NCBI GenBank assembly: GCA_910578665.1
Contig: CAJTQU010000007.1
Location: 26,179-90,178 of the forward strand
Direction: 5' to 3'
Length of the DNA stretch: 64,000 bases
Source: an uncultured Muribaculaceae bacterium
Lineage (GTDB): Bacteria; Bacteroidota; Bacteroidia; Bacteroidales; Muribaculaceae
Below the pieces are notes generated by a model. It had not been told where the DNA came from. It did not search any database and was given only the letters and a program-made list of their open reading frames with translations. Every line of letters begins with the position of its first letter. Positions within the stretch are counted from its first letter, which is position 1. Positions 37,360 through 50,335 of this stretch are shown piece by piece. The position numbers and the translations under genes are program-made.

Positions 37360-38511
37360 TCAATAATCCATCACCTGCATAGGCATCAGCAGCACTAGCA
37401 AGTCTTCGCCCTCCAGATTGACCTGCGGCACAAATACGCCGGGACGGGCCGGATCAGAGAGTTTGACCACAACGGTATCGGCCTGCATATTGTTAAGCAC
37501 CTCAATCATGTATACCACATTAAACCCGATAGTCATCGAATTACCCTGGTATTCGCACTCCAGACGTTCTTCTGCCGATATTGAATAATCCAGATCCTGG
37601 GTAGCCAGAAGCACTTCGTTAGAGCGTATATTGAGACGTACAAGCGACGATGCCGAGCTGGCAAACAACGCCACACGCCTCATGGCTGTCAGCAATGACA
37701 CGCGGTCTATGGTCAGTTCAAACGGATTGTCCTGCGGTATCACACGGTTGTAATTGGGATAACGGCCGTTGATAAAACGGCAGCTCAGACGAAACGTGCC
37801 GAGCGTGAACGTGGCACTCTTGTCATCCATCTCTATAGTTATATCGGCCTCTTCCTTACCGATAAGCGAACGCAATATGGCAGCCGGCTTCGGAGCCATG
37901 ATAAACGAAGTTGTAAGGCCAGGATCCACCTCGGTGTTGACATAGCGCACCAACTTGTGAGTGTCCGATGCCACAAACGTGATACCGGGTTGAGCGACGC
38001 CGGCCTCATTCACAGGGCAGACATCCCAGAACACACCCGTCATGACCGGACGTATAGTCTCCGTACTCACAGCAAACAAAGTGTGTTCCAGACCCTTGCG
38101 CACCACCTCGGCAGGCAGTGTCATACTCTTTCCGTCTTCCTTTGCAGCCTCGGGCAGAGGGAATTCGGCACCGTTGATACCCATGAAGTTAAAATGGCCG
38201 TTGAGGAAGCGTATGTCAATATCATTATTCTCGTCATTGATATAGAATGTAAGCGGCTGCCCCGACACCTCCTTAAGCATGTCAAGAAGACGTTTTGCCG
38301 GTATGGCGATAGAACCTGATCCCTCCGGATCAAACACCTCTACGGTGGCGGTCATAGTATTTTCCTGGTCGGATCCGATTATGGTAAGCGTGCTACCCTC
38401 CAACGAGAACAGAAAATTGTCCAATATGGACAGCGCGTTCTTACTGTTCACCACCTTGCTGACTGCCGACAGCTGCTGCGACAGTGTCTTGCTTGATATA
38501 TTGAATTTCAT
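37360..38511 (-). CDS. dnaN: DNA polymerase III beta sliding clamp
   Basis: The ORF-track frame is 37360..38550. The family-typical start MKFNISSKTLSQQLSAVSKVV is at the internal ATG (cat at 38509-38511). A -7-like box at 38559-38566 would be too close to the 38550 start. Confidence 0.9.
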   Translation of the reverse strand: MKFNISSKTLSQQLSAVSKVVNSKNALSILDNFLFSLEGSTLTIIGSDQENTMTATVEVFDPEGSGSIAIPAKRLLDMLKEVSGQPLTFYINDENNDIDIRFLNGHFNFMGINGAEFPLPEAAKEDGKSMTLPAEVVRKGLEHTLFAVSTETIRPVMTGVFWDVCPVNEAGVAQPGITFVASDTHKLVRYVNTEVDPGLTTSFIMAPKPAAILRSLIGKEEADITIEMDDKSATFTLGTFRLSCRFINGRYPNYNRVIPQDNPFELTIDRVSLLTAMRRVALFASSASSLVRLNIRSNEVLLATQDLDYSISAEERLECEYQGNSMTIGFNVVYMIEVLNNMQADTVVVKLSDPARPGVFVPQVNLEGEDLLVLLMPMQVMDY

Positions 38512-38558
38512 ACGGGTATGTTGTGTGATTATACTTTGAAGTGATTCCAATTAACCGA

Positions 38559-38566
38559 CAAAGATA
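38559..38566 (-). promoter_or_regulatory. possible -7 promoter box (TATCTTTG) for dnaN
   Basis: Plus-strand CAAAGATA equals minus-strand TATCTTTG, 48 nt upstream of the preferred dnaN ATG. Confidence 0.35.
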
Positions 38567-38666
38567 TAAAAAAAATTTCACATCTGCCCTATCGCCCTCC
38601 CCAAATCAGCCCAAATCAGCAAACAATGTCTGCCCTCAAACATTCTATAACAGCCGGACCAGTGTT

Positions 38667-38698
38667 ATATTCCATTATGAAAAATCATAATGGAATAT
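38667..38698 (-). terminator. 14-bp hairpin downstream of tatC (possible operon terminator)
   Basis: ATATTCCATTATGA (38667-38680), a 4-nt loop, then TCATAATGGAATAT (38685-38698). It is AT-rich and has no clear U-tract. Confidence 0.35.
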
Positions 38699-38759
38699 TA
38701 TACGAACACTCAAAACAAGGTTATTTCAGTATTTATACGGCAACTCTATAAATTTGCAG

Positions 38760-39548
38760 TTAAGATTTTCGCTCTACCGATCTTATTACTCTTATGCTAA
38801 TTTCGTATAACAGATACAACGGGATGGCAACAAGTATTAAAGTCATAATATCAGGAGGCGTTATTATCGCTGCAATAACACATATGGCAAGAAATGCGTA
38901 ACTGCGATATTTTATCAGATATGATGATTGAACCAATCCCATCCGCCCTAATACATAGGCTACGACAGGCAGTTGGAACACAAGACCCATCATAAGCGTA
39001 AGAGTCACAAAAGTAGATATATAGCTATCAAGTGTTATAGCGCTATGCACTTTGTCTGCCACCGAATATGTTCCCAGAAATCTGAAAGATATTGGAAATA
39101 AGACAAAATAACTCATAAATATGCCAATAATGAAAAGCAGATATATTATACAAACTATCTGCACGGAATATTTCTTCTCGTTATCTAACAAAGCTGGCGA
39201 AACGAATTTAAACAATTCATAGAGAATGAACGGCGAAGAACAAAACAAACCCAAATAAACCGAAGTAGTTATATGTGTCATAAACTGACTTGACAAATCT
39301 GTCGCTATCAAGTCTATATGAAATGCTCCAAAACTGAATTCCGGCTTAAACGTACGTATTAAATCTTCCAACCAACGATAAGTGCAGAAGTCAGGTTCGC
39401 TTGGAGACAGCAATACGGAAAACGTTACGTCTTTAAAAGCAAATATCAAACATGCAAATATAAGAGTTACAGCCAATATGCGAATTAATATTTTTCGGAG
39501 GACATCAAGATGCCCTCCGAATGTCATGAAAGATTTTTCCGATGACAT
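38760..39548 (-). CDS. tatC: twin-arginine translocase subunit TatC
   Basis: 262 aa. The N-terminus ...GGHLDVLRKILIRILAVTLIFACLIF... matches the HLxELRxRLI start of TatC. Six hydrophobic segments. Starts 3 nt after the tatA stop. Confidence 0.85.
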   Translation of the reverse strand: MSSEKSFMTFGGHLDVLRKILIRILAVTLIFACLIFAFKDVTFSVLLSPSEPDFCTYRWLEDLIRTFKPEFSFGAFHIDLIATDLSSQFMTHITTSVYLGLFCSSPFILYELFKFVSPALLDNEKKYSVQIVCIIYLLFIIGIFMSYFVLFPISFRFLGTYSVADKVHSAITLDSYISTFVTLTLMMGLVFQLPVVAYVLGRMGLVQSSYLIKYRSYAFLAICVIAAIITPPDIMTLILVAIPLYLLYEISIRVIRSVERKS

Positions 39549-39551
39549 AGA

Positions 39552-39782
39552 TTAATTTTTTCGTTCTGGAGAAGTAGCCGGAGATTCCTCCGGCAATATA
39601 TCACTATCTGGCATGTCATTGCCTTTTATATCAGTTGAAACCTCTTTCATTCCGTCTTTGAACTCACGGACTCCCTTTCCAAGTCCGCGCATCATTTCGG
39701 GAAGTTTTTTACCTCCAACTAAAAGGATAGCGAGTCCTCCTATCAATAACAACTCGGTAGTACCAATAAAACATAGCATCAT
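39552..39782 (-). CDS. tatA: twin-arginine translocase subunit TatA/E
   Basis: 76 aa with one TM followed by an amphipathic helix: ...LLLIGGLAILLVGGKKLPEMMRGLGKGVREFKDGMKE... ATGA overlap with the upstream 95-aa gene. Confidence 0.85.
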   Translation of the reverse strand: MMLCFIGTTELLLIGGLAILLVGGKKLPEMMRGLGKGVREFKDGMKEVSTDIKGNDMPDSDILPEESPATSPERKN

Positions 39783-40066
39783 AACAAAACAATCATTCCG
39801 GCGTTACTATATATATTACAGTCAGAAAAATCTATTTCCCAACTTCCATTATCCGCACTTTCCCAAGCATACTTGACAGACATTGACGACCACCAATTAC
39901 GAAAAGAAGTCTCTGTCTCAGCCAAATCTTTAACAAGTTTCTCGTAAAGATCTTCATTATCAGATGTGAGAATCTTTGCTAACTCAGCAAGTCCACTTTT
40001 TCTCTCAAAAAGCATCTGTATTGTATCTCTTTCTTGAGAATTAACCTGACCAATAAGTTTTTTCAT
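39779..40066 (-). CDS. small cytoplasmic accessory protein of the Cys-repeat peptide system
   Basis: 95 aa, MKKLIGQVNSQERDTIQMLFERKSGLAELAKILTSDNEDLYEKLVKDLAETETSFRNWWSS... Helical and acidic, with no signal peptide. Size and context fit my recollection of the 'CXXX repeat peptide modification system protein' family. Confidence 0.5.
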   Translation of the reverse strand: MKKLIGQVNSQERDTIQMLFERKSGLAELAKILTSDNEDLYEKLVKDLAETETSFRNWWSSMSVKYAWESADNGSWEIDFSDCNIYSNAGMIVLL

Positions 40067-40145
40067 TTTAAATCATATAGGTATTTGAAATATTCTTAAA
40101 TAAGAATGATTCTCTCCATTTAAAACTAGTAAACAAGCCCTGCTA

Positions 40146-40631
40146 TCATGCCCTGAACATATAATATGCTCTTATTCTGCAATTACTGCCACAATTATTG
40201 AAAACAACACTCTTTTCCCATAATATAATCAAGTCACTCCAATTTCCATTTTGAGAACAAGACTCAATTATACCGATCTGTTTACCATCCATTATAATCT
40301 TATTATCATTGACCTGGCAGTTGACAGTCTCAACTGTAGTCTCTTGATTATCTAGATAGCTAATTAAAAAACCGTCTACCAGATTTTCACCTATGGGAGC
40401 CACACATATATATGTATACGTATATGCGTTATAGTCAACAATTTGATCTTGACCACCTTCTTCTGAATAAAGGTCTATCTGTTTACATTCCATCCATAAA
40501 CCTGGAAACTGGTTTGTAATACCAGATGTTGTTTCACTTAGTTCGTCACTATTGTCATCTTTACTACATGATGTTATAATAATATTAGCAAAAAACAGGA
40601 TTATAAAACTCAGATATTTTATTTGTTTCAT
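40146..40631 (-). CDS. lipoprotein with an acidic post-Cys stretch (possible surface-export signal)
   Basis: The ORF-track start 40640 is a TTG. The ATG at 40629-40631 gives MKQIKYLSFIILFFANIIITSCSKDDNSDE... (lipobox ITSC, then SKDDNSDE). 161 aa, no recognisable family. Confidence 0.65.
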   Translation of the reverse strand: MKQIKYLSFIILFFANIIITSCSKDDNSDELSETTSGITNQFPGLWMECKQIDLYSEEGGQDQIVDYNAYTYTYICVAPIGENLVDGFLISYLDNQETTVETVNCQVNDNKIIMDGKQIGIIESCSQNGNWSDLIILWEKSVVFNNCGSNCRIRAYYMFRA

Positions 40632-40646
40632 TTTTAACAATTTAAA

Positions 40647-41603
40647 TTATTGATTAATAATACAATCTAAAGGATCAAGATAGTCAATTTCAGCAATGGA
40701 AATTCCTTCAACAATCGGGGTTCTATCACTTTTTAAATTTTCCAGAAAATTTTTTGAAGCATTCCGTTCGCAATGCGCAAGAAGACACTGTATTCTACCA
40801 GGAGTATTCACTTCGCGCGTTACGCGCTGATTAAGCCAAACACACCTCTTACACTGATATGCATCACATATCTTACATATGGGAGCATGGTTAATATCAA
40901 AAAGATAATGATTCTTTATGAATATACCATCTGTTAGTGAACCTATATTCTCCATGCCGACACTATAAAATCCGGGACATATATAAAATAAGCCATCCGG
41001 AGATACCGTGATCGATTCAACAGCCGCATTACAGTTATTCATATCCTTAAGTATCACACGGTCGGTAATAAGATTAAATTGAACCGCATTGCCTTGTGAA
41101 TACAACTCTGACAATAGAGGTATCAGACTATCAAGAAACGATTTATATGCAATGACTTGGCTCTCAGAGACTGACTCTATATCCGTAATAACTACATTAA
41201 GACGACTCAGCCGGTGTAAAAGCTCCCTCATTATATCACCACTTTCAAGTAGATCTTTAAATGTTGTGCGAATTACGCAAGTGATATCCAATTTCAATCT
41301 AAAATCATAAAGATCTGTCCATGAATCGAAAACTATTATTTGAGCTTTATCTAAAGTTTCCTTTACAGGGTAGTCAAAGGGCATAATCTTTATATGATCG
41401 ACACTCTCAACAACATCGTTTATTTCCACTGGCAATTCTTCTCGCGGATAAACAAATTGGATATAAAGATTTTCCAGCATACTGAATCTAACAATCTCAT
41501 GAAGAGTGTCAATATCAGTAAAACTGTCTTTAATACTTTGATTTGGATAATGACAAAAAGATATGGCATTAGCACCAAGTGGAACAATCAGATATTTCAA
41601 CAT
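40647..41603 (-). CDS. SPASM-type Cys-cluster protein lacking the radical SAM CxxxCxxC motif (second maturase component)
   Basis: 318 aa. The N-terminal half has a single Cys (ISFCHYP). The C-terminal half has ...NNCNAAVESITVSPDGLFYICPGF..., ...PICKICDAYQCKRCVW..., ...QCLLAHCER... Seven-nt overlap with the rSAM gene. The size fits my recollection of the 'CXXX repeat peptide maturase' family. Confidence 0.6.
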   Translation of the reverse strand: MLKYLIVPLGANAISFCHYPNQSIKDSFTDIDTLHEIVRFSMLENLYIQFVYPREELPVEINDVVESVDHIKIMPFDYPVKETLDKAQIIVFDSWTDLYDFRLKLDITCVIRTTFKDLLESGDIMRELLHRLSRLNVVITDIESVSESQVIAYKSFLDSLIPLLSELYSQGNAVQFNLITDRVILKDMNNCNAAVESITVSPDGLFYICPGFYSVGMENIGSLTDGIFIKNHYLFDINHAPICKICDAYQCKRCVWLNQRVTREVNTPGRIQCLLAHCERNASKNFLENLKSDRTPIVEGISIAEIDYLDPLDCIINQ

Positions 41604-42817
41604 AACTTATAATTGTTATCCCGAGCCGTCAAAGAGGTACTACAAAGTTTTTCTTCAGACTCCAGTTTGTTAAACAATTTATTCCAGTAATAATTATTTG
41701 CTCTCACACGCGCCTTGTGCATTTTGCAGATAGCGACCGACCGTTGATATATAGTGTCTGTATCAGCTGAATCATAGTTCTCTCCTTGACACCAGGCACA
41801 TCCACTGGCCACTTCGCATTCTATACACTCACGAGGTGACTGGCTTAACCGATCAAGAGATAGGAATGGCCTAAGAAGATCATTGTTGATACCATCTACA
41901 ACATTGCCGATGACGATCGGCTTCTTCTCTCTTAACGAATAAGCTGCAAAGCGAGTACATGGGTAAAAAAGACCTTTTGCATCAACAGCTAACATCCGTC
42001 CTGCTCCACACCAATTCTGATTGTCTACTTTAGAATCCAATGGTTTGCCAATGCTTTCTGAAAAAAATGAACAAGCATGATCCTCATAGTATCCGTGATT
42101 GATAATTTCATCTGCCAGTTCAATCAGCTGCTTTTCGAAAAGCTTATCATCACCTTCTTTCCAAACATTCTCAAATACGACATTGATATTAACCTCTTTG
42201 ATACCTAATGAATAAAGATGCAGCACACTCTCTCTGATATATGGAATATCAGCTGAACTGATAGTGACTTTAGTAGCTCCGTCCGGAAATTGAGACAGCC
42301 AAAGCGGTATGTTACGCACAACATCGTCATAGCTCCCCCGTTCAGGACCGCTACCTTTCCAGATCCTATTTAAGTCATGTTTTCGTTTTGTCCCATCAAT
42401 CGTTATCCCAATAGATAGATGTTCTCTATTTTTTTCTATGTATCGCTGTACTTTTTCACTATCGTAATTGATCCCATTAGTAGAGAACGAAAATCTGTAT
42501 GAATTGAACCATTTATGATTTAGTCGGAACATTTCGGTTTTTATGTAATCACAAATCTTATCAACAAGATCAATTTCTAGAAATGGTTCGCCCCCGATAA
42601 AATCCCATACCACCGAATCATCTTTAAAATCATCTTCATGGATAAGTATGTAATCAATTGCTGCCTTAGCAATTTTCCACTCCATTCGTTCGCTTTCATT
42701 TTTTCCTACAAGATAGCAATACTTGCAAGCAAGCTGGCAATCTTTCGTAACTATGAAAGTAATATTTTTGGTTCTACTTTCTCGCCAAGGGCGTTGTTGC
42801 TCCTTAATAGCACTCAT
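41597..42817 (-). CDS. radical SAM / SPASM-domain peptide maturase
   Basis: 406 aa with CxxxCxxC at C27/C31/C34 (TKDCQLACKYCY) and GGEPFL. C-terminal auxiliary-cluster cysteines: ...NWCGAGRMLAVDAKGLFYPC..., ...CIECEVASGCAWCQGENY..., ...CKMHKA... It lies directly downstream of the two Cys-repeat precursor genes. Confidence 0.85.
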   Translation of the reverse strand: MSAIKEQQRPWRESRTKNITFIVTKDCQLACKYCYLVGKNESERMEWKIAKAAIDYILIHEDDFKDDSVVWDFIGGEPFLEIDLVDKICDYIKTEMFRLNHKWFNSYRFSFSTNGINYDSEKVQRYIEKNREHLSIGITIDGTKRKHDLNRIWKGSGPERGSYDDVVRNIPLWLSQFPDGATKVTISSADIPYIRESVLHLYSLGIKEVNINVVFENVWKEGDDKLFEKQLIELADEIINHGYYEDHACSFFSESIGKPLDSKVDNQNWCGAGRMLAVDAKGLFYPCTRFAAYSLREKKPIVIGNVVDGINNDLLRPFLSLDRLSQSPRECIECEVASGCAWCQGENYDSADTDTIYQRSVAICKMHKARVRANNYYWNKLFNKLESEEKLCSTSLTARDNNYKLC

Positions 42818-42883
42818 ATAATGTGTATTTACATAATAAAGAAATGCAAGTATACCGAAACAAATTCGATATACTCACATTGA

Positions 42884-43201
42884 TTATCTACTTCCATATT
42901 TACATCCTCCGACACATCCTGTTTTGCAAGATGACAAACAAGCTCCTTTACATCCCGATTTACAGGAGTATGGGTGATACTCCATATTTGCACGGCAAGA
43001 GTCTCCACATGATGTTGAGCATGTGGAGCCACAACCAGAACAACCAGAAGACGAACCACCGCCTCCTCCACCTGGTTCATCCTCTGGATCACACGATGTC
43101 AGAAATGTCGGAACAATAGTTAATGCTAATATGGGCATAATTGCCGATACACTCTTCGAGAAAAACTTTCTTCTCGAAATCAGATTTTCATTGCCAATCA
43201 T
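42884..43201 (-). CDS. Cys-repeat precursor B: Tat signal + lipobox + Gly linker + 11-Cys CxxxC core
   Basis: 105 aa: MIGNENLISRRKFFSKSVSAIMPILALTIVPTFLTSC|DPEDEPGGGGGGSSSG CSGCGSTCSTSCGDSCRANMEYHPYSCKSGCKGACLSSCKTGCVGGCKYGSR. The twin-arginine motif is SRRKFFSK, and the lipobox is LTSC at Cys37. Confidence 0.8.
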   Translation of the reverse strand: MIGNENLISRRKFFSKSVSAIMPILALTIVPTFLTSCDPEDEPGGGGGGSSSGCSGCGSTCSTSCGDSCRANMEYHPYSCKSGCKGACLSSCKTGCVGGCKYGSR

Positions 43202-43203
43202 AA

Positions 43204-43479
43204 TTATTTACCAGAGTTATAACACATACCTCTACATGTTCCCTGGCATAAACCACTGCAACTAGTGCATGCATCACTACATTTTCCCGAGCAAGTTCCA
43301 GCACATCCGTAGCAACCACCACGACACGTTGTACAACTTGTAGCATCTGAATTAAGAGAATGGGCCAGGACAGGCGCATTAGCCAGAACTATCGTACCTA
43401 AAATAGGCAGGACTCCTTTCGCCGCGTTTTTAAAGAACTCGCGTCGTGACTGTAATTCTTTGTTTCGATTTTTATCCAT
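43204..43479 (-). CDS. Cys-repeat precursor A: Tat signal + 11-Cys CxxC/CxxxC core
   Basis: 91 aa: MDKNRNKELQSRREFFKNAAKGVLPILGTIVLANAPVLA|HSLNSDATS CTTCRGGCYGCAGTCSGKCSDACTSCSGLCQGTCRGMCYNSGK. The twin-arginine motif is SRREFFK, with a VLA-type signal peptidase I site. The stop is 2 nt before the precursor B start. Confidence 0.8.
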   Translation of the reverse strand: MDKNRNKELQSRREFFKNAAKGVLPILGTIVLANAPVLAHSLNSDATSCTTCRGGCYGCAGTCSGKCSDACTSCSGLCQGTCRGMCYNSGK

Positions 43480-43529
43480 GATCGAACTATCATGTCCTAT
43501 AGGCTCCCCGGATTGGACTTAAGATTTAT

Positions 43530-43775
43530 AAAAAAAGCGTGAAAGCCTGTACCTGTTGCTCTTTCAACTGATAGAGGCTCTCGCATTGCCCGTCTGAGTA
43601 GAAAGAGCAACGTCGAAGCCTCACGCTGTATGATAATACAAGAGCCGGCTCAAACCAGAACCAACATGTGTGTACCATACCCTATAAGGCATCTACCGTT
43701 GCTATTTCCTGACTCAGACAATTAGAATTTGCGAGATTCCTATCAGTCAAGAAAAAGCGTAAGTAAACGCTTTTT
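43530..43775 (-). promoter_or_regulatory. structured 5' leader of the Cys-repeat/rSAM/Tat operon (candidate attenuator, riboswitch-like element or sRNA)
   Basis: A two-tier hairpin at 43537-43626 (GCGTGA/TCACGC plus GTTGCTCTTTC/GAAAGAGCAAC) is followed on the minus strand by U7 (43530-43536). There is 22 bp of three-segment long-range complementarity between 43568-43599 and 43712-43746. A second hairpin, AAAAAGCGT/ACGCTTTTT, is at 43752-43775. Confidence 0.45.
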
Positions 43776-43836
43776 AATTATGTCTGCATCCCACCCACTT
43801 CAACCCGTATCGGGCTTCGACAAGCGATATGCGTCG

Positions 43837-43868
43837 CAAAGTTATAATTTTTATTTTACTAGCACAAA
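43837..43868 (-). promoter_or_regulatory. Bacteroidota-type promoter for the island operon
   Basis: On the minus strand, -33 TTTG (43865-43868), a 20-nt spacer, and -7 TAACTTTG (43837-43844). About 355 nt upstream of the precursor A ATG. Confidence 0.55.
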
Positions 43869-43993
43869 TTTTAACGCATTTTTTCAATTTTGACAAATAC
43901 ACACAACAAAAACTCCATACGGCATACATGAGAATATCGGCTTAAAATATGTTAATTACACCCTAGGCTTGTTATAAAGTGTGAAATTCAAAC

Positions 43994-44001
43994 TATATTT
44001 G
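43994..44001 (+). promoter_or_regulatory. -7 promoter box (TATATTTG) for the GlmU-like gene
   Basis: A TAnnTTTG match 28 nt upstream of the ATG at 44030. Only a partial -33 (cTTG at 43968-43971). Confidence 0.4.
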
Positions 44002-44029
44002 CAATTTCAATACTGACAGATAAGACAGC

Positions 44030-45241
44030 ATGAAGAACGTCATACTATATGATTCGGCATCTGTGCATGCAGATATGCTGCCGCTCTCATTCACCCGTCC
44101 GGTGAGCGACTTCAGAGTAGGCATAACTACCATAAGCGAAAAATGGCAGCACTATCTGCCAGGCAATTACAGTGTGTATACAGCCCCGTACCTGCGTGAC
44201 AAATTCACACCCCACGCGCAAAACACCAATTACTTCGTGGCCGCCAACTGCCTGCCCTCGGCAGAACTGGCAGAAGCCGTGTGCAGCCTCGCCACAGGCA
44301 GCGCGCTGGCAATGCCCGATGGAGAATACATAGCATTTGCCGGTTCAATGGAGGAATTCGAGGCTTTGGTGAAAAATGAGAAAGAGGTGCCTGTCACGAC
44401 ATTTCACGGGCCATGCACACCGCTGCATTTTTTATATGATCTGTTTCTGAACAACGGCAAAGCGCTGGCTGACGATTACCACGTCATAACAGCCGGAAGG
44501 GCCAGCCAGCCTCTGTCTGATTCTAACAGACTGATAGGAAATCCGTTGCTGCCTGACGGTACACCGGCCCTCTTCATAGAAGAGGGAGCATGGATAGAGG
44601 GGGCGACAATCAATGTGTCGGAAGGGCCTGTATATGTAGGCCGCGGAGCCAGAATATCGGAGGGCAGCTGCGTGCGCGGTCCCCTGGCCTTATGCGACCA
44701 CGCCCAGGTTAACATGGGGGCCAAAATATACGGCAACACCACCCTCGGACCGTATTGCAAAGTCGGCGGAGAGCTGAACAATGTGGTCATGTTCGGTTAT
44801 TCCAACAAGGCGCATGACGGCTATCTGGGCAATGCAGTCATAGGCGAATGGTGCAATATCGGTGCCGGTACCAATGCGTCAAACCTGAAAAACGATTATT
44901 CCAAAATACGCCTGTGGAATTACAATAAGCGATCATTCGTGCGCACCGACCTGCAGTTCTGCGGACTAATGATGGGAGACCATTCAAAGGCCGGCATCAA
45001 CTGCATGTTCAATACGGCCACAGTTGTGGGTGTCGGCTGCAATGTACATGGCGCCGGATTCCCAAGACCATTTGTTCCGAGCTTCTCCGAGGGAAGCCCG
45101 TCTGCCGGATTCCGCGATGTAGACCTTAGAAAATTTTTCGACATTGCCGCACGTGTCATGGCCCGACGCGGCATAGAACTAACAGAACTGGACCGCCGCA
45201 TTTTCCAAGCCATATCGGAAGCTGCCGCCAGCTATAAATAA
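44030..45241 (+). CDS. putative sugar nucleotidyltransferase with a left-handed beta-helix (GlmU-like)
   Basis: 403 aa. The C-terminal half shows hexapeptide-repeat character (...IEGATINVSEGPVYVGRGARISEGSCVRGPLALCDHAQVNMGAKIYGNTTLGPYCKVGGE...). Confidence 0.6.
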   Translation: MKNVILYDSASVHADMLPLSFTRPVSDFRVGITTISEKWQHYLPGNYSVYTAPYLRDKFTPHAQNTNYFVAANCLPSAELAEAVCSLATGSALAMPDGEYIAFAGSMEEFEALVKNEKEVPVTTFHGPCTPLHFLYDLFLNNGKALADDYHVITAGRASQPLSDSNRLIGNPLLPDGTPALFIEEGAWIEGATINVSEGPVYVGRGARISEGSCVRGPLALCDHAQVNMGAKIYGNTTLGPYCKVGGELNNVVMFGYSNKAHDGYLGNAVIGEWCNIGAGTNASNLKNDYSKIRLWNYNKRSFVRTDLQFCGLMMGDHSKAGINCMFNTATVVGVGCNVHGAGFPRPFVPSFSEGSPSAGFRDVDLRKFFDIAARVMARRGIELTELDRRIFQAISEAAASYK

Positions 45242-47738: not shown

Positions 47739-47770
47739 CGGCGCCCGGAATTGAGTGATTCCGGGCGCCG
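47739..47770 (+). terminator. GC-rich hairpin terminator after the gamma-CA gene
   Basis: CGGCGCCCGGAAT (47739-47751), a 6-nt loop, then ATTCCGGGCGCCG (47758-47770). Weak T-tract. Confidence 0.5.
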
Positions 47771-47946
47771 ACTTATTCAAACCCAGACACGGCCTCTACA
47801 TCTAAATCACCTTATATATGCATATATGCGTCACCGATAATACGGCCACATCATTAAAATAGTATTCGGTCTGGGAGGGATAACGAGCTATTTTGGCCGT
47901 ATGCCGCCGCACAGTTATTTTTTTACACTGAAAAAAGGCTGAAAAT

Positions 47947-47977
47947 TTTGCCAATTGAATAATCTTATATAATTTTG
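47947..47977 (+). promoter_or_regulatory. Bacteroidota-type promoter for rpsU
   Basis: -33 TTTG (47947-47950), a 19-nt spacer, and -7 TAATTTTG (47970-47977). 85 nt upstream of the rpsU ATG. Confidence 0.6.
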
Positions 47978-48061
47978 CAGCGCAATTGGTATAGGCACAA
48001 GCCAGTTACGGCATCTGCACACCGGCAAAACAGAATAACAAATAAAATTTACAAATAACAA

Positions 48062-48253
48062 ATGATCATTGTACAAGTAAAAGAAGGCGAAAACATTGAA
48101 AAGGCCTTGAAGAAATTCAAACGCAAATTTGAGCGCACCGGCATCGTGAAAGAACTTCGCGGTCGTCAGGCATTTGAAAAACCCTCTGTAACAAACCGCA
48201 AGAAAATGATTAAGGCGGTTTACGTACAGAAACTGCGCCAGGGCGAAGAGTAA
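48062..48253 (+). CDS. rpsU: 30S ribosomal protein S21
   Basis: 63 aa, MIIVQVKEGENIEKALKKFKRKFERTGIVKELRGRQAFEKPS... Confidence 0.92.
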   Translation: MIIVQVKEGENIEKALKKFKRKFERTGIVKELRGRQAFEKPSVTNRKKMIKAVYVQKLRQGEE

Positions 48254-48301
48254 AAATACTCTCACCCCTTTTTATTATTGTTTTCATTCTTTTTGAACCG
48301 C

Positions 48302-48349
48302 ATACAGATACAGGAGGCGTTGGAATTCCAACGCCTCCTGTATCTGTAT
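48302..48349 (+). terminator. perfect 48-bp palindrome (24-bp arms) downstream of rpsU
   Basis: ATACAGATACAGGAGGCGTTGGAA|TTCCAACGCCTCCTGTATCTGTAT. Every position was checked and pairs. No T-tract follows. Confidence 0.55.
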
Positions 48350-48583
48350 ATACCTTAATCTAATTTTATTACTTGTAACTCTGCTGTAATATAGAGCATT
48401 ATAAAATTAACGGTGTACTCGTGGCGTACTAATTAATTGAAGAAATCGAAAACAGGATACCCGATTTTAGGATTTTAATGGGAGTTAGTTATCTTTAATG
48501 CGATTCTTTTTTGGTAGGTTTCCAAAGATTCGAGGCTTGAATAGAAAGGCAATAAGAAAAAATTGCTAATTTTGTGTTACGAT

Positions 48584-49155
48584 ATGGCACAGTTCAATCA
48601 ATATGACTCTCTGATTGACCTCTCGGTGATAAAGGAATTTTGCAGAGAGAATGGCCGCATAGTCTATTATCCCAAAGATGATGTTTTTGTCCATCAGGGA
48701 TGTGTAGCCAAGTATCTCGGAGTTGTAGAATCAGGGTATTTCAAATATACGACACCCACATCATCGGACAATGAAGCTGTCGTAGGGTTCGCTTTCGAGG
48801 GGGAAATTGTAGCTGACTATTATAACTCGTTCAACACATACCATCGGAAATCACGATAAAGGCAGGTAACAATGCCTCAGTATCTCAAATCAGAACCGGA
48901 GAGGCACGAAATATATTCAATTCTTTCTTCGAGGGAAACCTTTCCGCACTCAATGGTACTCTTTTCAGTGAGATTTATTCACGTTATATTGAGCTTTACC
49001 GCAAGACGCCGGCAGAAAGATACCTTGCTCTTATAACAATGTATCCTCAGATTTTAAACATCGTTTCGTTGCGAGATATAGCCTCGTATTTGCTCGTTAC
49101 TCCGGTATATCTAAGCCGAATCCGAAAAAATCTTGTTAAAAATTCCCACGAATAA
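48584..49155 (+). pseudogene. Crp/Fnr-family transcriptional regulator, frameshifted
   Basis: Frame A (ATG 48584) encodes a cNMP-binding-like N-domain, ...YPKDDVFVHQGCVAKYLGVVESGYFKY...GFAFEGEIVADYYNSF, and stops at 48857-48859. Another frame continues IPSEITIKAGNNASVSQIRTGEARNIF...LRDIASYLLVTPVYLSRIRKNLVKNSHE* (HTH) to 49155. A frameshift near 48840 joins them. Confidence 0.6.
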
Positions 49156-49444
49156 AACTTATTTTATCCCGAACAAGTTTTTGCCTGTGGCTTTCTTTTG
49201 CATTATTTGATTCAGAATCCTCTATTTACAGTCTGTGTCAGACGTTGCTATTGGTCTTTTAGTCATTGGAATATCCGGGTACCATTATCATATACTTACA
49301 ACAACTGCAACATTATAATACCGGAATTGCCCGGCAAGCCTGACGCTTAAAAACACCTATAGCAGGAGCTGATGATATTTTTTCGGAGAACATGATGATA
49401 CTTCAGATTTTTTCGTTATCTTTGTGAAATAAATCCGCAACGGT

Positions 49445-50335
49445 ATGATAGAGCGATTTCTGACATATCTGCGATGCGAGGTGAACTATTCGCCCCACAC
49501 GGTGGCTGCCTACCGCAGCGATCTGTTCCAGTTAGCGTCCTGGCTGACAGGAGACAAACCTGAGAACTTCGATGCGGCAAGCGTGACGCATGCCGACATC
49601 CGCTCATGGCTCGGGCACATGGCCCGACAAGGGACCGGCCCACGCTCGCTACGTCGCAAACTGCTGTCTGTAAGATCGTTCTACCGTTTCTTGCGAAAGA
49701 CAGGACTGGCGGCCACAAATCCGGCGTCATCTGTAGAACTGCCCAAAATACCGAAACCCCTCCCCCACTTTGTCAGCGAGAACGATATGGAGCAGATTGT
49801 GGGTCCAGACGCGTTTGACACAGACGATGTGGAAGAATACCGCGACAAGCTCATAATAGACATACTGTATTCTACCGGCATACGCCGTTCAGAACTGTTA
49901 GGGTTGCGTGACTGTGACATTTTGCTTAACTCATACGAGATCAAAGTGAATGGCAAACGCCGCAAACAACGCATCATACCCATACCGGAACAGCTAGCCG
50001 GCCGCATAAAAAAGTATATGGCACTGCGTGACGCGAGCTTCGGCACATGCCATGACGCATTTTTACTGTCACGGCGCGGACTACCGCTGAACAATGCAGC
50101 CCTTTCGCGCATTGTAAAGATAGAACTGGCCGCTACCGGCACAGAGCGCAAGACACCGCATGTGCTCCGCCACAGCTTTGCCACGGCGCTATTACGCGAC
50201 GGCGCAGAAATAAACAGTGTGAAAGAATTGCTGGGGCACTCTTCCCTGTCTACGACACAGATATATACGCACCTCTCCTTTAGCGAGTTACAACATAATT
50301 ACAAACTGGCTCATCCCCGGGCCACAAAAAAATGA
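49445..50335 (+). CDS. tyrosine site-specific recombinase, XerC/XerD family
   Basis: 296 aa with an N-terminal SAM-like domain (FLTYLRCEVNYSPHTVAAYRSDL) and a catalytic C-domain (...HVLRHSFATALL...GHSSLSTTQIYTH). It sits in the rpsU - xer - hpf arrangement common in Bacteroidales (from memory). Confidence 0.8.
   Translation: MIERFLTYLRCEVNYSPHTVAAYRSDLFQLASWLTGDKPENFDAASVTHADIRSWLGHMARQGTGPRSLRRKLLSVRSFYRFLRKTGLAATNPASSVELPKIPKPLPHFVSENDMEQIVGPDAFDTDDVEEYRDKLIIDILYSTGIRRSELLGLRDCDILLNSYEIKVNGKRRKQRIIPIPEQLAGRIKKYMALRDASFGTCHDAFLLSRRGLPLNNAALSRIVKIELAATGTERKTPHVLRHSFATALLRDGAEINSVKELLGHSSLSTTQIYTHLSFSELQHNYKLAHPRATKK

Follow-up and report, generated by a model that had tools for sequence, protein, structure and literature searches.

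Radical S-adenosylmethionine (SAM) enzymes that carry SPASM domains and act on cysteine-containing peptides are the nearest characterised relatives of the system analyzed here. PapB and CteB, whose peptides are freyrasin and SCIFF, respectively, combine a radical SAM/SPASM architecture with two auxiliary clusters and substrates with repeated cysteines. QhpD cross-links a small cysteine-containing polypeptide in the cytoplasm before its transfer to the periplasm; this polypeptide, QhpC, has its leader cleaved, exits through a dedicated ABC transporter and becomes an enzyme subunit. The twin-arginine translocation (Tat) pathway is the route for proteins that are post-translationally finished or loaded with their cofactor, and Tat chaperones are small dedicated proteins that hold the signal until the cargo is finished. 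Signal peptides carried by precursors of ribosomally synthesized peptides with post-translational modifications (RiPPs) have been called highly unusual and have so far been of the Sec type (PMC12452194), and RiPPs of the lipoprotein type were reported in 2025-26 (PMC13056109); Tat is mentioned in neither paper, and a RiPP-mining study of the Bacteroidales does not mention the CXXX-repeat system (PMC10352776). The latter (TIGR04115, TIGR04119 and TIGR04116, with target models TIGR04114, TIGR04117 and TIGR04118) is defined only computationally, and our full-text literature search found no paper on it or on TIGR04115. Here we analyze a CXXX-repeat locus in 64,000 nt of DNA from an uncultured Muribaculaceae bacterium (assembly GCA_910578665.1, contig CAJTQU010000007.1, positions 26,179 to 90,178; this whole stretch is referred to as the window, and coordinates count from its first letter). 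On balance, we lean towards a reading in which this locus is a module whose peptides are made, cross-linked by a radical SAM enzyme and exported through Tat, with a leader RNA regulating the whole.

The locus consists of eight co-oriented open reading frames (ORFs) on the minus strand, between positions 38760 and 43479. In the direction of transcription, these encode two precursor peptides, preA (43204-43479, 91 residues) and, after a gap of 2 nt, preB (42884-43201, 105 residues), followed at a distance of 66 nt by a radical SAM (rSAM)/SPASM maturase of 406 residues (41597-42817). The gene for a pseudo-radical-SAM/SPASM protein of 318 residues (40647-41603) overlaps that of the maturase by 7 nt, and is followed by genes for a lipoprotein of 164 residues (40146-40640) and for a small CXXX-system protein of 95 residues (39779-40066). 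The latter is joined by an ATGA overlap to tatA (39552-39782, 76 residues), and tatC (38760-39548, 262 residues) begins 3 nt further on. A first-pass annotation of this DNA had listed the eight genes with these lengths and spacings, and all were reproduced in our ORF check; it had also placed tatA and tatC in the same transcription unit as the peptide genes, which agrees with their tight packing into the gene string. It had overlooked the lipobox of preB with the acidic residues behind it and, although its span took in this DNA, the fact that the transcription unit reaches upstream to approximately position 43868, through a promoter and a structured leader RNA.

The enzyme side of the locus is readily recognized. 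The 406-residue protein scored 622.7 bits against TIGR04115 (cut-off 350), covering the whole model (1-359), the 318-residue protein scored 213.3 bits against TIGR04119 (cut-off 150), and the 95-residue protein 91.7 bits against TIGR04116 (cut-off 50). The suggestion that these three proteins belong to the CXXX-repeat system is thus borne out at every NCBIfam cut-off and, with a cysteine at every fourth residue of the precursors, the sequence identifies the locus as a typical member of this known, uncharacterised family. TatC is equally clear (158.5 bits against TIGR00945, cut-off 132.7; 204.6 bits against PF00902, cut-off 25.1), and TatA scored 48.9 bits against PF02416 (cut-off 21) and, marginally, 54.0 bits against TIGR01411 (cut-off 53.9).

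The rSAM maturase carries the motif C27x3C31x2C34 and seven SPASM cysteines, all invariant among the aligned relatives. Its next-best models were those of PapB (187.2 bits, cut-off 340) and of the SCIFF maturase (107.3 bits, cut-off 425), so that it lies below the equivalog cut-offs of these thioether enzymes, and it scored 96 bits against the QhpD model TIGR03906. By sequence, CteB (PDB 5wgg; E 1.9e-24) alone among its relatives has a solved structure, and the alignment pairs residue 12 of the query with residue 92 of CteB at its start; the fused N-terminal peptide-recognition domain of CteB is therefore absent. The enzyme has relatives in 561 or more species-level genomes and in no fewer than 8000 protein clusters, mostly from gut and rumen Bacteroidales, and it is ~76% identical across families, a level of identity which, together with the intact SAM-cluster motif, argues for true catalysis on the peptide. 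In loci L043 (8896-9978) and L079 (5635-6741), the main rSAM gene is directly preceded by the gene for a second rSAM paralogue, which shares 46-47% identity with the enzyme of the window.

An AlphaFold2 model of the 318-residue protein, with a mean confidence (pLDDT) of 90.5, superposed over its full length on CteB in a Foldseek search (E 1e-10, TM 0.65-0.67), and anSME was also matched. The protein has the full seven-cysteine SPASM motif, with invariant cysteines, and lacks CX3CX2C, only C17 being conserved in the region of the beta1-alpha1 loop. Since the whole fold and the SPASM motif are kept, with a single cysteine at the site of the SAM cluster, we consider this protein to be a catalytically dead rSAM/SPASM paralogue. 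For the 95-residue protein, AlphaFold2 predicts (pLDDT 88.7) one strand, then a long helical hairpin, then a beta-hairpin. Its model had no PDB neighbor at E <0.5 (best match E 0.56), and a profile of its family found nothing below E 0.14 among PDB sequences. The predicted fold and the null profile search exclude a PqqD-like RiPP recognition element, which is a winged helix with three helices and a three-stranded sheet, and the fold, with no PDB neighbor at E <0.5 and no profile hit, likewise excludes a chaperone of the NapD/TorD kind. A profile search among 1.84 billion representatives yielded 703 relatives, and all eight of the long homologues that were tested carry TIGR04116. Seven of them (P0396, P0429, P0436, P0439, P0461, P0463 and P0470, from other organisms) are TIGR04119-TIGR04116 fusions, and in the eighth another rSAM/SPASM fragment precedes TIGR04116. 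Because natural fusions join them, we take the 95-residue protein to work with the dead paralogue as its partner.

Both precursors begin with a twin-arginine signal of the S/T-R-R-x-F-L-K type followed by a hydrophobic stretch, as had been proposed. In preA, this signal starts with SRREFFK and ends in VLA before a signal peptidase I-type site (MDKNRNKELQSRREFFKNAAKGVLPILGTIVLANAPVLA, hydrophobic stretch included, followed by HS), and the tail that follows has 11 cysteines, mostly at four-residue spacing; a synthetic-peptide version of the precursor signal region would be ELQSRRQFFKKAAKGALPILGA. The signal of preB (SRRKFFS and a hydrophobic stretch) leads into the lipobox LTSC, then DPEDEP, a run of glycines and the cysteine repeats, a succession which classes preB, by sequence, as the lipoprotein type. 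An acidic stretch after the lipobox favors surface exposure in Bacteroidota. In homologous loci, the precursor ORFs are retained as coding sequence, and 82 such loci yielded 120 distinct precursors; these were aligned on the RR that had been used to select them. The consensus is (K/N)EELQSRRxFFKKAAKxALPILGA, with F at +3 in 97%, F at +4 in 92%, K at +5 in 82%, L at +12 in 88% and P at +13 in 96% of the sequences, so that conservation reaches deep into the hydrophobic region. This is tighter than expected for a generic Tat signal, and suggests that the signal region doubles as a handle for the maturation proteins.

Within the repeats of the same 120 precursors, 86.7% of the intervals between successive cysteines equal four, and each precursor has a median of 13 cysteines (range 7-47). 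The first spacer position of CXXX is S, K or T, the second is G in 40% and the third S, G or T in 70% of the cases. A lipobox with at least two acidic residues is present in 29 of the 120; loci have between one and six precursors, and 13 of them have both signal types, as does the window. The CXXX target models were missed by the precursors: TIGR04117 gave 42.4 (preA) and 17 bits against a cut-off of 50, TIGR04114 gave 14.5 and 9.1 bits against 20, and TIGR04118 gave 8.7 bits against 35. These are narrow paralogue or repeat models that were derived from Firmicutes paralogues. In locus L151, an ORF of 365 residues (6187 onward) combines within its first 70 residues a signal of the CXXX type (ELLHRREFFKKSVKTALPIVA) with a lipobox and a run of Asp, followed by repeats of Asn, Ser and Gly; its overall Cys content is below 10%.

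The module recurs across the Bacteroidales in one order, with one base composition and at differing chromosomal sites. We fetched 80 loci out of 561 species-representative genomes with a relative of the rSAM enzyme, and in 61 of the 71 with sufficient downstream sequence the order was precursor(s), rSAM, 318-residue protein, 95-residue protein, tatA and tatC. When 80 metagenome loci were instead ascertained through TatC, 64 were linked to a CXXX system, nine were unlinked with room upstream, and seven were too short. Linkage of tatAC to CXXX genes is thus 86-88% (61/71 and 64/73), and the arrangement that had stood out in the first-pass annotation is the Bacteroidales norm and not a peculiarity of this locus. 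The flanking genes of the window are shared by none of the 80 other species loci, and we did not encounter a tatAC pair at this same position in relatives devoid of the peptide genes.

Base composition also ties the translocase to the maturation genes. Over 90 loci, the maturase genes averaged a GC content of 0.440 and tatC one of 0.434, as against a mean of 0.506 in the flanks, a gap of ~7 points, and maturase genes and tatC were each below flank GC in 78 of the 90. The GC content of tatC correlates with that of the maturase genes (r=0.77), while the correlation between maturase genes and flanks is weak (r=0.30). In addition, one metagenome-assembled genome (MAG) has two divergent modules on separate contigs, each with its own tatAC (TatC 56.5% and dead paralogue 45.6% identical). 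The non-syntenic sites, the tracking of maturase GC by tatC and the MAG with two modules indicate that the translocase belongs to the module. Pairwise identities of rSAM and TatC proteins were uninformative as to co-evolution (rho 0.12), with rSAM identity saturating near 76%.

Over the 550 nt that precede preA, nucleotide identity to the equivalent regions of more than 40 other species is 68-82%. This stretch contains a sequence that reads as a Bacteroidetes-type promoter (43868-43837): TTTG (43868-43865), 20 nt, and TAACTTTG (43844-43837). The promoter motif of Bacteroides is TTTG at -33 and TAnnTTTG at -7, and the -7 TTTG is kept without change in all of 33 aligned sequences. A structured leader RNA of 303 nt (43832-43530), supported by covariation and conservation, follows on the minus strand and ends in ACGC and seven U, the U-run lying 50 nt before preA. 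In the RNAalifold fold it is one long rod in which the helices P1 to P9 are nested. In P1, 43774-43767 pairs with 43540-43533 (AAAAGCGU with ACGCUUUU); in P3, 43750-43739 with 43575-43564; in P4, 43736-43730 with 43585-43579 (UCUCGCA with UGCGAGA); and in P6, 43718-43713 with 43598-43593.

In an alignment of 28 sequences, 95.8% of the helix cells were paired, versus 84.4% in shuffled alignments and 37-46% when the partners were slid. Changes on both sides were present in 29 of 59 pairs, which was equalled by none of 500 shuffles, and the covariation score of the leader was 0.389 versus 0.175. Hypervariable base pairs with near-perfect covariation occur in both P3 and P6, and P4 exists in lineage-specific variants (UCUGGCA/UGCCAGA, UCUGGAA/UUCCAG, UCUGGUA/UACCAGA and CUUCGCA/UGCGAAG, read by eye, the pairs being counted separately). 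The U-run is separated from the start codon of preA by a further conserved hairpin at 43518-43494 (alignment columns 501-530), GUCC-(AAUCCGGGGAGCCUAUA)-GGAC, whose stem has the compensatory variants GUCC/GGAC, GCC/GGC, UGCC/GGCA and CCU/AGG, also by eye. A hidden protein gene as the cause of this conservation is excluded by indels of 1-2 nt and by the compensatory changes across the helices. The leader is not a known RNA family either, since Rfam 15 gave no hit at E<=1 over 38000-44600, and only chance-level hits at E<=10 for the window and the L004 leaders.

The distribution of the leader was established with an nhmmer profile, which uses sequence only, and counts were restricted to loci with more than 2.5 kb upstream. 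It was found in 51 of 64 rSAM-ascertained and 21 of 29 TatC-ascertained loci (about 75-80%), and all copies but one are on the strand of the operon. The next ORF mostly starts 49-80 nt after the U-run, and is a Tat-signal precursor in ~60% of cases; otherwise, it encodes another secreted or surface protein ahead of the precursors, as in L004 (9057), L014, L016, L069, L009 (3180), L044 (7953), L029 (4676), L010 (6777) and L039 (7755). Such first genes encode a 176-residue protein without a family match, lipoproteins of 400-500 residues with Big_2 domains, a secreted cysteine-rich protein of the DnaJ type (CXXCXGXG) and a LysM lipoprotein. Extra copies of the leader away from precursors were observed in L017 (15708-16019), where the copy precedes a Ser/Thr protein kinase gene, in L037 (3849-4160, reverse strand), where it precedes a 78-residue ORF, and in L099 (4879-5139 and 5725-5979); these hint at a small regulon. 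A leader fragment of ~100 nt lies just downstream of a seemingly unlinked tatC in L096 (10905-11009), and looks like the relic of a broken module.

Directly before the U-run, an alternative 3' fold of 8-9 bp (GCGUGAG/CUCACGC) is possible in 28 of 28 sequences. This hairpin is incompatible with the rod and has a few compensatory changes, and our hypothesis, drawn from the sequences, is that the leader may act as a two-state switch.

Taken together, these observations suggest the following course of events. The leader RNA would control read-through into the operon, through the rod that ends in a U-run and the 8-9 bp hairpin with which it is incompatible. The dead paralogue and its 95-residue partner would bind, while still in the cytoplasm, the conserved signal region of the precursors, which could substitute for the missing recognition domain of the rSAM enzyme and delay export. 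The rSAM enzyme would then link cysteine sulfurs to carbons of neighboring residues, as do PapB, CteB and QhpD, yielding a ladder of small thioether rings; by analogy with these enzymes, the chemistry is probably that of thioethers. The cross-linked peptide would leave through TatAC, export in a cross-linked or cofactor-loaded state having been suggested in the first-pass annotation. Signal peptidase I would free preA into the periplasm, while preB would be lipidated at its lipobox cysteine, signal peptidase II completing the processing of this type, and its acidic stretch would probably direct it to the cell surface. The peptides might ultimately serve in metal binding, envelope structure or antagonism.

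Several results weigh against this scheme. The generic Tat-signal models TIGR01409 and PF10518 were not listed for preA or preB at E <=10 (most weak short matches are dropped by the HMMER filters), and for this reason the assignment of Tat targeting is based on the motif and on gene linkage. In ten rSAM loci, ample sequence is available downstream but tatAC does not follow, and unrelated housekeeping genes take its place; the translocase is therefore evidently able to act from elsewhere in the genome. The reaction itself could differ from thioether formation, because the rSAM enzyme falls far short of the PapB cut-off (187 versus 340 bits), and the peptide-binding role of the 95-residue protein, which has no structural neighbor in the PDB, is a guess. 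Lastly, RNAalifold did not recover the alternative hairpin when applied to the 3' part of the leader alone, which leaves the two-state switch a hypothesis.

Other potential users of the translocase bear on how it should be viewed. The window contains no further ORF with an RR signal, and over ~2.3 Mb of related loci we found almost no Tat-type candidates outside the CXXX precursors, the best and most convincing of which adjoin tatAC. In L152 (9794-13732) and L161 (297-4235), tatA-tatC lies beside genes for a NapH/MauN-like polyferredoxin membrane protein and for an RR-signal lipoprotein with similarity to aldo-keto reductases and ferredoxins, which is a likely Tat cargo. A different operon that terminates in tatA-tatC is present in L156 (5477-10759; L158 is near-identical) and has genes for two rSAM proteins, of which one falls into the anSME/DynA/cyclophane-forming group, as well as for a heptosyltransferase-like protein. 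Its fifth gene encodes a peptide of 135 residues in which a twin-arginine signal precedes Tyr-rich triplet repeats (SYR, SYY, NYF and others); by sequence, it represents a second type of repeat peptide that has a Tat signal and is accompanied by rSAM enzymes. Our own reading is that Tat in these bacteria may serve few cargos and be encoded beside them.

The tatAC pair had been described as private to the peptides. That it lies within the module stands, but a status additional to a housekeeping Tat is unsupported, since in a neighbor-joining tree of 140 TatC sequences the unlinked proteins are scattered among the linked ones with no separate housekeeping clade. The tree points to a single Bacteroidales TatC lineage, usually inside a CXXX operon, and because linked and unlinked proteins intermingle, the pair in the window may be the only Tat of its genome. 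It could then be the organism's single general-purpose translocase, placed beside its most abundant cargo and serving others too, in which case "dedicated" would be the wrong word; we give this alternative close to an even chance. The nine unlinked TatCs within the tree, the classical redox cargo encoded beside unlinked tatAC in L152 and L161 and the ten CXXX loci that must rely on a translocase encoded elsewhere all speak for it. The low GC content that tatC shares with the maturase genes and not with the flanks, the non-syntenic sites of the module, the MAG with a tatAC in each of two modules and the near absence of other RR-signal proteins are less easily reconciled with a general role. A comparable question arises for the upstream RNA, which could be an independent small RNA, with a promoter and a terminator to itself, rather than a cis-acting leader. 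Its rod pairs the two ends of the RNA through P1 and is followed by more U, so that it resembles a complete terminated transcript, and there are copies away from precursor genes, namely the second one in L017 and the reverse-strand one in L037. We nevertheless regard this possibility as rather unlikely, given that in 93 hits the next ORF is mostly 49-80 nt downstream on the same strand, that the spacer is itself conserved and forms a hairpin, and that the displaced copies too have an ORF close behind; moreover, no promoter-like element was noticed between leader and ORF, in a region that was not systematically searched for one.

The function of the peptides can also be read in other ways. They could bind metal or iron-sulfur clusters in the manner of metallothioneins or copper stores, being loaded in the cytoplasm and exported by Tat in the holo form, with the SPASM proteins handling the cluster or metal. 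The number of cysteines in each peptide (median 13, range 7-47), the established role of Tat in exporting cofactor-loaded proteins and the retention of the whole seven-cysteine auxiliary-cluster motif in the dead paralogue would suit this explanation, and so would the precedent of bufferins, which are cysteine-derived RiPPs that bind copper and have signal peptides (PMC11626156). It is harder to square with an rSAM enzyme that has an intact SAM-cluster motif and is ~76% identical across families, and with thioether formation by all of its nearest characterised relatives. Spacers rich in G, S and T and a strict CX3 periodicity are also unlike the motifs of known sites; we know of no iron-sulfur or copper-thiolate motif with these properties, and judge this explanation improbable. 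More improbable still, in our view, is that the peptides are secreted antimicrobials, i.e. bacteriocin-like RiPPs, and the island a competition locus. Divergent precursor paralogues, numbering one to six per locus, and a compositional island at variable sites are what such a locus might display, and classes of thioether peptides made by rSAM enzymes include antimicrobials. The conserved core has no immunity gene, ABC exporter or protease, however, about one quarter of the precursors are lipoproteins that would remain attached to the producer, and the enzymes show much stronger conservation than competition loci usually do.

Beyond this locus, we tentatively propose, as a possibility that falls well short of an even prospect, that the portable Bacteroidales module represents a new RiPP route, in which rSAM cross-linking is combined with export by a module-borne Tat, some products become surface lipoproteins and expression is governed by a riboswitch-like leader of ~300 nt without a match in Rfam; Tat in these organisms would be mainly a cargo-linked exporter of such peptides and less a housekeeping pathway of general use. 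The Tyr-repeat system of L156, with its own rSAM enzymes and tatAC, points the same way as this view of Tat. If peptides are indeed cross-linked and then exported by Tat, this would constitute a third logic of RiPP export, beyond a leader with an ABC exporter and the Sec-signal route, and RiPP-mining rules that require a leader peptide and a protease would miss the module. The leader RNA ranks among the better-supported candidates for regulatory RNAs from comparative data, and the signal to which it responds, once found, would also reveal the purpose of the peptides. Should tatAC be the sole Tat in these genomes, the view of Tat in the Bacteroidales would change.

The immediate setting of the operon offers further details. 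It lies between dnaN (37360-38550) and a divergent nucleotidyl-transferase gene (44030-45241), and the AT-rich character ascribed to it in the first-pass annotation was confirmed, with a GC content of 0.31-0.40 over 38500-43000 versus ~0.51 in dnaN and 0.51-0.56 in the opposite flank. A second low-GC stretch at ~47750-49500 (0.35-0.40) looks like no more than the usual AT-rich intergenic DNA, around rpsU and a short Crp-like ORF. That the island has no integrase or att site also agrees with our results: the 64-kb window has no tRNA gene, no direct repeats flank the island, and the sole integrase-family gene nearby is a XerC/D-type recombinase (49445-50335) ~6 kb off, beside rpsU. A prophage or integrative element is ruled out by the lack of att-like repeats and of a tRNA gene and by the rarity of the rSAM gene on viral contigs, where it was found on only one of 2.9 million.

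The spacer of 66 nt that separates preB from the rSAM gene is filled by a terminator-like hairpin of 17 pairs with a T-rich tail on the minus strand (42881-42843), and hairpins of similar strength are present in L001, L004 and L014. The sequence makes a possible attenuator that would set the ratio of precursor to enzyme, and this would fit a common pattern in which precursor transcripts exceed enzyme transcripts. At the other end, 64 nt past the tatC stop codon, the inverted repeat ATTCCATTATGA-TTTT-TCATAATGGAAT (38696-38669, minus strand), noticed on reading the sequence, is the likely end of the transcription unit; it went unreported by the terminator scan because no T-run follows it. The 164-residue lipoprotein, which has no family match, carries the lipobox ITSC followed by SKDDNSDE. 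Its relatives, 24-28% identical, are weak and restricted to L001, L016, L066 and L069, and by this distribution it appears to be an accessory gene outside the conserved core. The same DNA is also present in a public assembly (GCA_021768115.1, contig JAETOG010000004.1), whose gene calls include a wrong-frame ORF of 83 residues over preB (window 42829-43080; 9738-9989 in L081/L082). Neither preA nor preB was called on that contig, so both are unannotated there.

When set against regulatory RNAs in Rfam, the leader shares with riboswitches and other cis-acting leaders its 5' untranslated position, conserved internal loops, a U-run before the first gene and a potential competing hairpin. At ~300 nt in a single long rod, it is bigger than most riboswitches and differs from them in shape, and its gene context suggests no ligand.

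Among peptide-maturation systems, the locus shares with PapB and CteB the rSAM/SPASM architecture with two auxiliary clusters and the repeated-cysteine substrates. It differs from them in that its rSAM enzyme remains below the PapB cut-off and has no fused N-terminal recognition domain, in the addition of a dead paralogue with a 95-residue partner, and in precursors that carry Tat signals instead of cleavable leaders; in agreement with what had been noted earlier, no protease or ABC exporter is encoded within the operon. With QhpD and QhpC it has in common an rSAM/SPASM enzyme and a small cysteine-containing polypeptide, but it lacks a partner enzyme for the product and would export by Tat. 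Bufferins and the RiPP lipoproteins of the DybA type resemble the window system in being modified in the cytoplasm and exported through a general signal peptide, some of them as lipoproteins (PMC12452194, PMC11626156, PMC13056109); they use Sec signals and MNIO enzymes, whereas the window system has a twin-arginine signal, a radical SAM enzyme and translocase genes in the operon. The logic of the Tat chaperones NapD, TorD and DmsD may be shared, but the 95-residue protein has no structural match at E <0.5 and its fusions are to the dead rSAM paralogue. Operon-borne tatAC, RiPPs with Tat signals and the leader RNA are undescribed in the literature that was searched, which did not cover the family notes of the NCBIfam curators; these may already remark on Tat signals, because the TIGR04117 model aligns across the signal region. 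The architecture as a whole, absent from that literature, departs from every characterised peptide-maturation system in its Tat signals, its module-borne tatAC, its dead paralogue with a partner and its structured leader RNA.

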